The notes under the pieces were generated by a model, which was not told the DNA's origin, made no database searches, and saw only the letters and a list, made by a program, of their open reading frames with translations. From contig OZ024741.1 of assembly GCA_964016885.1 (NCBI GenBank), positions 87,358,001 through 87,422,000 of the forward strand: a DNA stretch of 64,000 nucleotides, given 5' to 3'. Position 1 is the first letter of the stretch. The number at the start of each line of letters is the position of its first letter. This stretch comes from Eledone cirrhosa (taxonomy: Eukaryota). This document shows, piece by piece, positions 1-4,900 of the stretch. The position numbers and the translations under genes were made by a program.

Positions 1-1290
1 ATCACTTGGTACACAGACACAGTCTACAACACGTATATCACTTGCTACACAGACACAGGCTACAACATATACCTCACTTGGTACACAGACACAGTCTACA
101 ACACATACATCACTTGCTACACAGACAAAGTCTACAACACATACATCACGTCGTACACAGACACAACCACAACACATACATCACTTGGTACACAGACACA
201 GTCTACAACACATATTCCACTTGGTACACAGACACAGGCTACAACACATACATCACTTGGTACACAGACACAGTCTACAACACATATTCCACTTGGTACA
301 CAGACACAGGCTACAACACATACATCACTTGGTACACAGACACAGTCTACAACACATATACACCACTTGATACACAGACACAGTCTACAACACATACATC
401 ACTTGCTACACAGACAAAGTCTACAACACATACATCACGTCGTACACAGACACAGTCTACAACACACATACACCACTTGGTACACAGACACAGTCTACAA
501 CACACATACCTCACTTGATACACAGACACAGTCTACAACACATACATCACTTGCTACACAGACAAAGTCTACAACACATACATCACGTCGTACACAGACA
601 CAGTCTACAACACACATACACCACTTGGTACACAGACACAGTCTACAACACACATACCTCACTTGATACACAGACACAGCCTACAACACATACCTCACTT
701 GGTACACAGACACAGTCCACAACACATACACCACTTGGTACACAGACACAGTCTACAACACATACACCACTTGGTACACAGACACAGTCTACAATACATA
801 CATCACTTGGTACACAGACACAGTCTACAACACATACACCACTTGGTACACAGACACAGTCTACAACACATACACCACTTGGTACACAGACACAGTCTAC
901 AATACATATATAGCGAGATTAAAACCGGCAAATAGAAGAATATAGCTTAAGGCTGAAGAATCCTTGGGGGAGAAATGCTATCTCTGGCGTGCGGCTGTCT
1001 GTGAGGAGAGACATCTCAGTGAATCGAGAATTTATGCTGCCTACACGTGCCAATACAAGGTTGAAAAAAAAAATATTTCTAACGCGCGAGAAAATGATAG
1101 TGCAATTTTGAAAGTGACAATGATGAAAAAGAAAGGCTTCAATCAGCATAATTATAGGTGTGAACTTTGGAAAAAAACAAAAAACTTGAACGATGAAGAA
1201 AACGAAGAACAAAAGGCAATGGTTCATCGAAAATAAATGTTCCTGTTGAAATGTTTTTTAAAGAATATCAAATTTCTTTTTTTTTTTGTG

Positions 1291-1413
1291 TGTTTTGAAA
1301 GAGTTCGTTGTAAGAAACGAGAAACATATATATATATTGTGAAATGTTTTTTTTTGTTTTGAAAGTGTTCGTTGTAAGAAACGAGAAACATATATATATA
1401 TATTGGTGAAATG
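1291..1413. repeat. Two-copy tandem duplication (period ~64 bp) in the element's internal region
   Basis: TGTTTTGAAAG(A/T)GTTCGTTGTAAGAAACGAGAAACA(TA)nTTG(G)TGAAATG at 1291-1346 and 1355-1413; present in all five element copies. Confidence 0.92.
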
Positions 1414-1597
1414 CGACAGTTAATTGATGCGTGAGAGAAAAAGTATGTCTGTGCGAATTCCACATGTGCGTGTGTGCGTGTCCTTGAGTATTTTCATAGT
1501 TTGTCGCTAAATTTGCTGTGTATTCGTAATGTTACTCACAAAACCAGATGTGCTATTTTTTTTCTTTTTTGGGGGGTGACCACTTATAGCGATGAAC

Positions 1598-1629
1598 GGC
1601 TGCGTGTTCGTATCACGTCAGGGTTACCA
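1598..1629 (-). other. Primer-binding site complementary to the tRNA-Trp 3' end, extended to ~32 nt
   Basis: Plus strand reads GGCTGCGTGTTCGTATCACGTCAGGGTTACCA versus the metazoan tRNA-Trp(CCA) 3' end GGCTGCGTGTTCGAATCACGTCGGGGTCA+CCA (recalled). On the minus strand it starts with TGG, 1 nt after the LTR end. Confidence 0.88.
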
Positions 1630-1691
1630 ATATAGCGAGATTACTGGTTGCATGAATGTAACAAAACGAGACAATGTTTGTGTATGTAATA

Positions 1692-1697
1692 TTTAAT
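1692..1697 (-). promoter_or_regulatory. Putative polyadenylation signal ATTAAA in the LTR
   Basis: TTTAAT on the plus strand, ~60 nt before the minus-strand LTR end, where an R/U5 signal is expected. Confidence 0.45.
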
Positions 1698-1797
1698 TAA
1701 CGGTAGATAGAATACTTGACATGTCAAAGATAGATGTTAGAATGAAACAAAGTTAGTAGTTACCGTTTTGATTGCCAGGCAAACGCGGCTGGCAGAG

Positions 1798-1821
1798 GGC
1801 GCCTGGCTAAGGCCAGGCGCC
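1798..1821. other. Perfect 10-bp GC-rich stem-loop in the putative LTR R region
   Basis: GGCGCCTGGC-TAAG-GCCAGGCGCC. Confidence 0.85.
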
Positions 1822-1879
1822 TGTTGGCCAAATTAATGGCAGAGCCAAATGAGAAGACTCTTGACCTGGTGCCGAAAAG

Positions 1880-1975
1880 GCAAAGAGAGAGGAAGGAAGC
1901 TTAACGTTGTTAGTTTTATAGGGCTCTGACCGGAAGTTGCAGAAAGGGTTCCACTTCCCGTCTAGATCCCAATCA
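1880..1975 (-). promoter_or_regulatory. Putative Pol II promoter in LTR U3
   Basis: TATAAAA (minus) at 1914-1920; ACCGGAAGT at 1929-1937; CACTTCCCG at 1952-1960; CCAAT at 1969-1973; CTTCCTTCCTCTCTCTTT (minus) ~15-30 nt downstream of the TATA box. Confidence 0.6.
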
Positions 1976-4900
1976 AAACAAGGGAGACAACCGCTACACA
2001 TACATCACTTGGTACACAGACACAGTCTACAACACATACACCACTTGGTACACAGACACAGTCTACAATACATACATCACTTGGTACACAGACACAGTCT
2101 ACAACACATACACCACTTGGTACAAAGACACAGTCTACAACACATACATCACTTGGTACACAGACACAGTCTACAACACATACACCTCACTTGATACACA
2201 GACACAGTCCACAACACATACATCACTTGGTACACAGACACAGTCTACAACACATACACCACTTGGTACACAGACACAGTCTACAACACATACACCACTT
2301 GGTACACAGACACAGTCTACAACACACATACACCACTTGGTACACAGACACAGTCTACAACACATACACCACTTGGTACACAGACCCAGTCTACAACACA
2401 TACACCACTTGCTACACAGTCACACTCTACAACACACACACATCACTTGGTACAGAGACACAGTCTACAACACATACCTCACTTGGTACACAGACACAGT
2501 CTACAACACACATACACCACTTGGTACACAGACACAGTCTACAACACACATACCTCACTTGATACACAGACACAGTCTACAACACATACATCACTTGCTA
2601 CACAGACACAGTCTACAAGACATACACCACTTGGTACACAGACACAGTCTACAACACATACATCACTTGGTACACAGACACAGTCTACAACACACATACC
2701 TCACTTGGTCCACAGACACAGTCTACAACACATACACCACTTGGTACACAGACACAGTCTACAACACATACACCACTTGGTACACAGACACAGTCTACAA
2801 CACATACATCACTTGGTACACAGACACAGTCTACAACACACATACCTCACTTGGTCCACAGACACAGTCTACAACACATACATCACTTGGTACACAGACA
2901 CAGTCTACAACACATACACCACTTGGTACACATACACAGTCTACATAACATACATCACTTGGTACACAGATACAGTCCACAACACATACATCACTTGGTA
3001 CACAGACAGTCTACAACACATACATAACTTGCTACACAGACAAAGTCTACAACACATACACCACTTGGTACACAGACACAGTCTACAACACATACATCAC
3101 TTGGTGCACAGACACAGTCTACAACACATACACCACTTGGTACACAGACACAGTCTACAACACACATACCTCACTTGGTCCACAGACACAGTCTACAACA
3201 CATACATCACTTGGTACACAGACACAGTCCACAACACATACATCACTTGGTACACAGACACAGTCTACAACACACATAAATCACTTCGTACACAGACACA
3301 GTCTACAACACATACGTAACTTGCTACACAGACAAAGTCTACAACACATACACCACTTGGTACACAGACACAGTCTACAATACATACATCACTTGGTACA
3401 CAGACACAGTCTACTACACATACACCACTTGGTACACAGACACAGTCTACAACACATACATCACTTGGTACACAGACAGTCTACAACACATACACCTCAC
3501 TTGATACACAGACACAGTCCACAACACATACATCACTTGGTACACAGATACAGTCTACAACACATACACCACTTGGTACACAGACACAGTCTCCAATACA
3601 TACATCACTTGGGACACAGACACAGTCCACAACACATACATCACTTGGTACACAGACACAGTCTACAACACACATACACCACTTGGTACACAGACACAGT
3701 CTACAACACATACACCTCACTTGATACACAGACACAGTCTACAACACATACACCACTTGGTACACAGACAGTCTACAACACATACACCTCACTTGATACA
3801 CAGACACAGTCTACAACACATACACCACTTGGTACACAGACACAGTCTACAACACATACACCACTTGCTACACAGTCACACTCTACAACACACACACATC
3901 ACTTGGTACAGAGACACAGTCTACAACACATACCTCACTTGGTACACAGACACAGTCTACAACACACATACACCACTTGGTACACAGACACAGTCTACAA
4001 CACACATACCTCACTTGATACACAGACACATCCACAACACATACATCCCTTGCTACACAGACACAGTCTACAAGACATACACCACTTGGTACACAGACAC
4101 AGTCTACAAAACATACACCACTTGGTACACAGACACAGTCTACAACACATACACCACTTGCTACACAGTCACACTCTACAACACACACACATCACTTGGT
4201 ACAGAGACACAGTCTACAACACATACCTCACTTGGTACACAGACACAGTCTACAACACACATACACCACTTGGTACACAGACACAGTCTACAACACACAT
4301 ACCTCACTTGATACACAGACACAGTCTACAACACATACATCACTTGCTACACAGACACAGTCTACAAGACATACACCACATGGTACACAGATACAGTCTA
4401 CAACACACATACCTCACTTGGTCCACAGACACAGTCTACAACACATACACCACTTGGTACACAGACACAGTCTACAACACATACATCACTTGGTACACAG
4501 ACACAGTCTACAACACATATTCCACTTGGTACACAGACACAGTCTACAACACATACATCACTTGGTACACAGACACAGTCTACAACACACATACCTCACT
4601 TGGTCCACAGACACAGTCTACAACACATACTTAACTTGGTACACAGACACAGCCTACAACACATACACCACTTGGTACACAGACACAGTCTACAACACAT
4701 ACATCACTTGGTGCACAGACACAGTCTACAACACACATACACCACTTGGTACACAGACACAGTCTACAACACACATACCTCACTTGGTCCACAGACACAG
4801 TCTACAACACATACATCACTTGGTACACAGACACAGTCCACAACACATACATCACTTGGTACACAGACACAGTCTACAACACACATAAATCACTTCGTAC

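Follow-up and report, generated by a model that had tools for sequence, protein, structure and literature searches.

A one-LTR element with a 13-nt U5 stub in a satellite array of Eledone cirrhosa and its probable origin in early minus-strand synthesis

The stretch analysed here, referred to as the window, comprises 64,000 nt of the Eledone cirrhosa genome (assembly GCA_964016885.1, contig OZ024741.1, forward-strand positions 87,358,001 to 87,422,000) and opens within a 36-bp satellite array that carries a retroelement with a single complete long terminal repeat (LTR). The insert is located between a CATA at 905-908 and a second CATA at 1999-2002 and measures exactly 1,090 bp. The empty satellite monomer, TACAATACATACATCAC, is found 53 times in the window with a single CATA and never (0 occurrences) with an additional one, hence the 4 bp flanking the insert are a true target-site duplication (TSD). 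On the minus strand the LTR (1998-1631, TGTAGCG...CGCTATA) is followed by a single T at 1630 and a primer-binding site (PBS, 1629-1612), of which 16 of 18 nt, and 27 of 32 nt when extended, agree with the complement of a tRNA-Trp(CCA) gene in this genome. Then come a non-coding interior and, adjoining the duplication, a stub at 921-909, TAATCTCGCTATA, which is the same as the LTR's final 13 nt. Of these, the terminal 7 nt (CGCTATA) are nearly invariant across the family and likely correspond to the integrase end. In the tRNA-Trp pattern search the first four matches were PBS read-throughs of other LTR elements and not genes, and tRNA-Trp genes made up two of ten further tRNA-pattern matches. 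No purine tract precedes the stub in the window copy, and its longest stop-free frame has 112 codons.

A sequence-only reading of the window had described this insert inside a satellite monomer, with the same minus-strand order and with no polypurine tract (PPT), second LTR body or gag/pol, and these points are confirmed. It had also set the element apart from both TRIMs (terminal-repeat retrotransposons in miniature) and solo LTRs, which agrees with one LTR and no PPT next to a retained PBS and 690 bp of interior, and had placed it in Ty3/Gypsy, which holds given the tRNA-Trp PBS, the 4-bp TSD and the TGT...ATA ends. Absent from it was that the insert is present five times.

All five copies share the same TSD and an exact common flank of 211-738 bp, and the four extra ones are 99.6-99.9% identical to the 909-1998 insert, with one to four differences each. 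Their substitutions are distinct, one being common to two copies, and the spacers between them differ by whole monomers. Throughout the 3.0 Gb of genome searched, a 23-nt junction pattern (one mismatch allowed) gives five matches, all in this array, and the best 35 other matches of a junction-region search end at the beginning of the stub. Since the junction is confined to five array sites with the same flanks, the five copies are one insertion that was multiplied along with the satellite, and the one-LTR form itself never moved. On contig C14, at 21.37-21.46 Mb (L271), 13 LTR-PBS matches lie about 5-6 kb apart, and the two that were read have two LTRs each and share a TACT duplication; this is another array-driven amplification. 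The 36-bp satellite changes strand about 19 kb upstream of the window (L067, about 1253).

Two-LTR parents, whose existence the sequence-only reading had proposed to check, are abundant: LTR-PBS junction patterns return 252 and 382 genome matches, and an LTR search yields many pairs about 1.75 kb apart. The 12 parent pairs fetched span 2,089-2,165 bp, with LTRs of 366-369 bp, a PPT ahead of the 3' LTR and, in 11 of them, a 4-bp duplication. Among 125 measured LTR pairs the median LTR-body divergence is 0.29% and the TSD is perfect in 116; TATA is the commonest duplication (11 of the 116), the remainder being spread over 77 other 4-mers. Judged from its sequence, the parent is a young 2.1-kb non-autonomous two-LTR family with CsRn1-type cis features, and L082 is a true solo LTR of this family. 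No coding region was found in the window copy or the parent; a coding function was rejected after 12 frames of one two-LTR parent copy gave no Pfam family above the cut-off, and an RNA function after Rfam matches on L069 fell in flanking microsatellite. Compared with two parents, the window copy misses 1,004-1,021 bp, i.e. 650-670 bp of interior including the PPT plus 355 bp of 3' LTR. Microhomology is absent from the 921/922 junction and no parent variant among the printed loci supplies homology there, so a microhomology-mediated deletion was rejected.

Complementarity to tRNA-Trp continues for 14 nt beyond the PBS, in the window (1598-1611), family-wide and also at L277-L280 and L283-L290. 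The base opposite what we take to be tRNA position 58, presumably carrying the m1A modification, is A in most distinct contexts (183, against 9 with T and 4 with G), a pattern that likely represents a fixed read-through past the modified base. An exact 32-nt tRNA-Trp complement is present in other LTR families of this genome.

Gypsy pol, also proposed for searching by the sequence-only reading, was found at L207, where a frame with reverse transcriptase (RT), RNase H (RH) and integrase (IN) domains according to Pfam is joined to the 3' interior of the non-coding family and to one of its LTRs (80% identity). This pol has at least 40 relatives at 97% identity or more, the CsRn1 Gag motif CX2HX9CX3C occurs in 9 of 12 loci of the gag-pol family, and upstream of gag, at 20 loci, the LTR ends in CCTAAA in 16 while the LTR of the non-coding family stands directly in front in one (L324). 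On account of the L207 fusion, the pol relatives, the Gag motif and the L324 LTR, the gag-pol family is likely the helper of the non-coding family, with which it swaps parts. The non-coding family may itself have originated as an LTR-swap chimera, since L324 (1170-1240) and L147 (430-770) join its LTR to the helper's leader. The cryptic second tip and PBS of the window copy (1573-1591) resembles the helper's LTR end and PBS. A pattern aimed at the autonomous parent retrieved 11 rearranged copies instead.

The architecture of the window copy recurs at unrelated loci. This was observed in a census of 180 loci anchored on the LTR-PBS junction, made up of the first 100 of the 252 matches plus the further matches listed for the second pattern, leaving out the window's copies and L218 (another family) and counting the C14 array once. 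Two LTRs are present in 167 of the 180, 11 of these being seen only to the start of the 3' LTR. At four loci (Table 1) a perfect 4-bp TSD encloses one LTR, a PBS, a partial interior and a stub, and the junction differs from locus to locus; one further locus (L262) has a stub of 16-19 nt and a PBS followed by unrelated DNA. The remainder consists of five copies truncated without a stub in the fetched stretch, two inverted copies without a clear 3' end and one unclear case. A further one-LTR case from the junction-region search, L040, lies outside the census (stub of 12 nt, duplication 3/4). Junction microhomology in the one-LTR cases amounts to 0-1 nt. Among the census loci five breakpoints lie within the 3' LTR, and four of them are confined to the final 20 of its 368 nt (P = 4e-5 under a uniform null, which is a simplification; the window copy and L040 are excluded), L221 being the sole one elsewhere, near the LTR start. 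Recurrence with different junctions and TSDs argues for a repeated reverse-transcription error and not a one-off.

Stubs are also found inside complete elements. In L248 (12-13 nt) and L142 (16-20 nt) a stub and PBS lie behind the 5' LTR of TSD-flanked two-LTR copies, and being internal the stub cannot have been selected there by integrase. L161, L221 and L291, in turn, end at the cryptic site 46 nt beyond the 3' LTR with a perfect TSD, the 46-nt extension being present at both ends in L161 and L221 and at the 3' end in L291; such elements show that a displaced U5 end gets integrated. It should be noted that the short-stub pattern (382 matches) mostly hit the normal 46-nt site. Other TSD-flanked strand-transfer products at the PBS are L084, L088, L213 and L214.

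Several rearrangements around the PBS were recorded along the way. Fold-back inversions begin at or just behind it in L213, L214, L215, L227, L108 and L166, the first three with a perfect TSD, and deletions starting in or right after it land on a few matching bases downstream in L084, L088, L083 and L207, L084 being a 931-bp two-LTR mini copy with TSD. L095/L096 (C18, 23.51 Mb) contains three tandem 325-bp units, each a partial LTR plus PBS. At L292 (1930-2549; C1, about 255.459 Mb) 9 nt of PBS and then an 11-nt stub come after an LTR of about 600 bp that is unrelated to the family, next to a microsatellite and with a 3/4 duplication; a second family may carry the stub form as well.

Table 1. 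Features of the one-LTR element, its satellite host and copies, and census loci of the same architecture
Feature	Position	Strand	Remarks
Host 36-bp satellite array	1..57029	+	five copies in 4.0-5.0-kb higher-order units
TSD CATA (TATG in element orientation), adjoins stub	905..908		single CATA in empty monomer
Stub, 13 nt, LTR U5 tip	909..921	-	identical to last 13 nt of LTR
5' portion of the non-coding interior of the 2.1-kb parent	922..1611	-	compared with parents
Two tandem repeats of 64-67 bp in interior	1283..1413	-	also in parents; sequence comparison
Cryptic second LTR tip and PBS-like site, 46 nt behind LTR	1573..1591	-	element end in three other copies
Extra 14 nt of tRNA-Trp complement past 18-nt PBS	1598..1611	-	27/32 nt match
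PBS for tRNA-Trp(CCA)	1612..1629	-	16/18 nt match
Complete 5' LTR, 368 bp	1631..1998	-	ends TGT...ATA; from sequence
TATA-like box and ATTAAA inside LTR	1923-1914 and 1697-1692	-	putative roles
TSD CATA, adjoins LTR start	1999..2002		single CATA in empty monomer
Copy 2	5726..6815	-	2 substitutions, 2 one-base indels
Copy 3	9739..10828	-	1 substitution
Copy 4	14771..15860	-	1 substitution
Copy 5	19442..20530	-	1 one-base indel
L107, one LTR, stub of 20 nt			perfect TSD
L137, one LTR, stub of 10-11 nt			perfect TSD
L254, one LTR, stub of 13-14 nt			perfect TSD
L267, one LTR, stub of 7-9 nt			perfect TSD

The same few nucleotides stand out in intact elements. In 125 LTR pairs (tandem, rearranged and unparsed loci left out; positions counted from the U5 end) mismatch events per 100 nt amount to 0.2 at positions 1-7, 10.4 at 8-13, 5.1 at 14-20, 1.5-2.3 at 21-45 and 0.3-0.8 beyond 45, disagreement within pairs at positions 8-13 thus being about 20-fold above the LTR body. 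Positions 8-20 hold 123 of the 395 mismatch events, and positions 1-7 only 2 in the 125 pairs. Age is not the cause of this hotspot, because the tip differs in 10 of 45 pairs with identical bodies (27 events). Between elements, too, polymorphism is highest at these positions; since the within-to-between ratio is 0.28-0.40 across the last 45 nt and 0.10 in the far part, some of the signal reflects U5 taken from a second RNA. Of 45 pairs whose last 13 nt are discordant, 29 have both of their versions represented among concordant pairs as well, and eight pairs exchange one same two-base haplotype, in both directions; the tip mismatches look more like exchange than like fresh error. Stubs and tip mismatches hence fall in the same 7-20-nt window, beside the invariant 7-nt end. 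As a control, the last 20 nt differ in 60 of 149 ordinary pairs, and the argument that a stub unlike its own LTR tip indicates a pre-integration origin or two templates was dropped. Error hotspots have reportedly been described at Ty1 template ends.

The element is a single insertion that was later multiplied with the satellite. We consider it probable that its truncation predates integration, the tRNA-primed minus strand having leapt downstream once about 14 nt had been copied. Minus-strand DNA begins at the tRNA, and the U5 tip is copied first. Early in this synthesis RT would stall or release, the nascent strand often detaching at a length of 7-20 nt; in the window copy about 14 nt would have been copied before a jump of about 710 nt downstream. 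Re-annealing in register on a sister RNA would leave the tip altered or swapped, and re-annealing out of register downstream would give the stub-interior-PBS arrangement. The full 5' LTR could be supplied by plus strong-stop DNA of a sister cDNA, a route proposed for HIV-1 (PMC9278108); alternatively, the same cDNA might complete an extended LTR, which either integrates by itself or is reduced to a solo through recombination. As both ends of the product are intact, integrase would take it, and the 5'-only stub-plus-PBS copies would be its reciprocal counterpart. With no PPT and no second R/U3 the product would not transpose again and would be a dead end. For the class as a whole, pre-integration template switching appears supported by the clustered stub breakpoints and the tip hotspot. 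As to the length of the tip, the active sites for polymerase and RNase H in Ty3 RT are about 13 bp apart (PMC5371799), and a first RNase H cut could free the strand at about 13 bp.

Several points weigh against this origin. The spacing just mentioned is borrowed from yeast Ty3, which belongs to another clade and has an atypical plus-strand transfer (PMC5371799). The window copy carries nothing diagnostic, its stub being equal to its own LTR tip, and the route is not provable for it alone; stubs unlike their own 5' tip (L107, L254, L142) prove nothing either, given the control above. The census requires an intact LTR-PBS junction and is biased towards contigs C1-C2 and one PBS variant; of the 382 matches it takes in less than half. 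At none of its 180 loci is an element seen that is extended ectopically over a long stretch at both ends. Finally, tandem copies are present (L138, L054/L055), and a deletion within a tandem dimer could also have produced L248 and L142.

Other explanations were weighed against the early minus-strand jump. A deletion of the DNA copy before integration, by a plus-strand jump or cDNA recombination at a random site, with insertion only if the 7-nt attachment end was kept, accounts for the intact TSDs and, through the scarcity of events at positions 1-7, for the lower limit of stub length; the L221 breakpoint is in line with it, as are HIV-1 3' LTR deletions, which are reported to end mostly in U3 (PMC9278108). 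We nevertheless regard it as unlikely: selection of the end sets no upper limit, yet the census breakpoints crowd in the last 20 nt, and both the internal stubs with PBS and the tip hotspot of intact pairs are left unexplained.

It also seems improbable that a full two-LTR copy entered the satellite and that host repair then cut about 1,010 bp, by chance 13 nt short of the end, before the array was amplified. The sequence-only reading had held that a junction found only in this array, with intact parents elsewhere, would mean a one-off deletion, and such is the distribution observed. In addition, satellite arrays rearrange, the spacers here differing by whole monomers, and five census loci are truncated with no stub in the stretch fetched. 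However, the junction lacks microhomology, no intact two-LTR copy is found among the five and no LTR in the 30 kb upstream, and stops in the final 20 nt of the LTR, for which repair offers no reason, are seen at L040 and at four unrelated loci out of 180. The proposal, made in the same reading, of a deletion sparing just the integrase attachment end is right in outline and fails as a one-off event, since the architecture recurs with other junctions and TSDs.

An assembly artefact, either in the junction or in its five-fold repeat, is very improbable; the near identity of the copies, the three one-base indels among their differences and a junction known from the assembly alone would fit it, whereas the distinct substitutions, the differing spacers and the same architecture with perfect TSDs outside the array do not. 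Despite the several one-LTR-plus-stub elements with perfect TSDs, a minimal non-autonomous family transposing with one LTR and a bare attachment site, the other option of the sequence-only reading, is refuted for this assembly: the junction, which that reading suggested seeking at other loci with different TSDs, has genome-wide only its five matches in one array with one TSD, the junctions of the other elements are all different with none at a second site, and the PPT and second R/U3 that the standard LTR replication cycle needs are missing.

The early minus-strand jump may be taken one step further. Tentatively, and as something possible rather than probable, a CsRn1-type RT might routinely drop the tRNA with an 8-21-nt DNA tip and restart on another RNA, which would amount to a third, very early strand transfer by which tips move between co-packaged elements as separate modules. 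If true, this would account for the stubs seen in about 2% of copies, for the tips that disagree in about a fifth of LTR pairs identical elsewhere and for the stub-PBS duplications, and would inflate the LTR-pair ages of this family by about 45%. The window locus is a dead copy, and its value is that of a fossil of the first 10-20 bases of minus-strand synthesis, which are hard to see in living cells; several hundred young copies would record the early slip both in register, as tip mismatches, and out of register, as stubs. The data also bound the U5 end needed by this integrase at about 7 nt, warn that LTR-pair dating can be inflated where 13 positions give nearly a third of the differences, and point to a class of copies that two-LTR and solo-LTR finding tools would both overlook.

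Past the array end, window positions 58200-58660 have a biased composition and could represent a minus-strand fragment of the long interspersed element (LINE) type, and a long inverted repeat of about 130-250 bp is located at 59133-59262 and 59380-59509, with its centre near 59320.

Concerning known systems, the CsRn1 clade of Ty3/Gypsy is characterised by a tRNA-Trp PBS, a 4-bp TSD and LTR ends TGT...ACA modified to ATA or AAA (PMC2582038). Its members also encode a Gag with CX2HX9CX3C and a PR-RT-RH-IN pol. The window copy shares the PBS, the TSD and the TGT...ATA ends, and its parents have a PPT before the 3' LTR, whereas the Gag motif and the RT, RH and IN domains are found in the likely helper only. 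It differs in that the window copy and the 2.1-kb parent are non-coding, that the window copy has neither PPT nor complete 3' LTR, and that the helper mostly carries another LTR. We regard the window copy as a derivative and not an intact CsRn1 member, a placement made from cis features and the helper's Gag motif.

TRIMs are described as shorter than 1 kb with repeats of 100-250 bp (PMC6934838, PMC13570524). The parent resembles them and other non-autonomous LTR elements in being non-coding, with two LTRs, PBS and PPT and with tandem, solo and truncated derivatives, but at 2.1 kb with an LTR of 368 bp it is too large, and the window copy lacks the second LTR and the PPT. Like a solo LTR, the window copy has one LTR between the TSD; unlike one, it retains a second tip as well as the PBS and 690 bp of interior, and it could be a solo of an extended LTR. 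The insertion of tRNA-Gly at deletions (PMC12220202) is a different phenomenon. In HTLV-1, proviruses lose the 5' LTR before integration, integrase using internal sequence (PMC6950816). These are likewise one-LTR defective inserts with an intact integrase duplication and a loss that predates integration, but they are affected on the mirror side and end in internal sequence instead of a retained LTR tip.

A literature search gave no account of U5-tip-confined stubs in a retrotransposon family, a weak negative given that older and subscription papers were poorly covered. A close match is with asymmetric-LTR HIV-1 proviruses, which are ascribed to reverse-transcription errors and of which 1 of 26 had lost all of U3 and R, in an assay blind to U5 loss (PMC9278108). 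As in these, the window copy has an intact 5' LTR, a deletion from the interior into the 3' LTR, and both ends and the TSD kept. The octopus deletions differ in ending 7-20 nt from the U5 end, in belonging to a germline retrotransposon and in having a matching hotspot in intact pairs. By this comparison the stub-bearing copies resemble a known kind of reverse-transcription product, and what would be new is the crowding of their breakpoints in the U5 tip.

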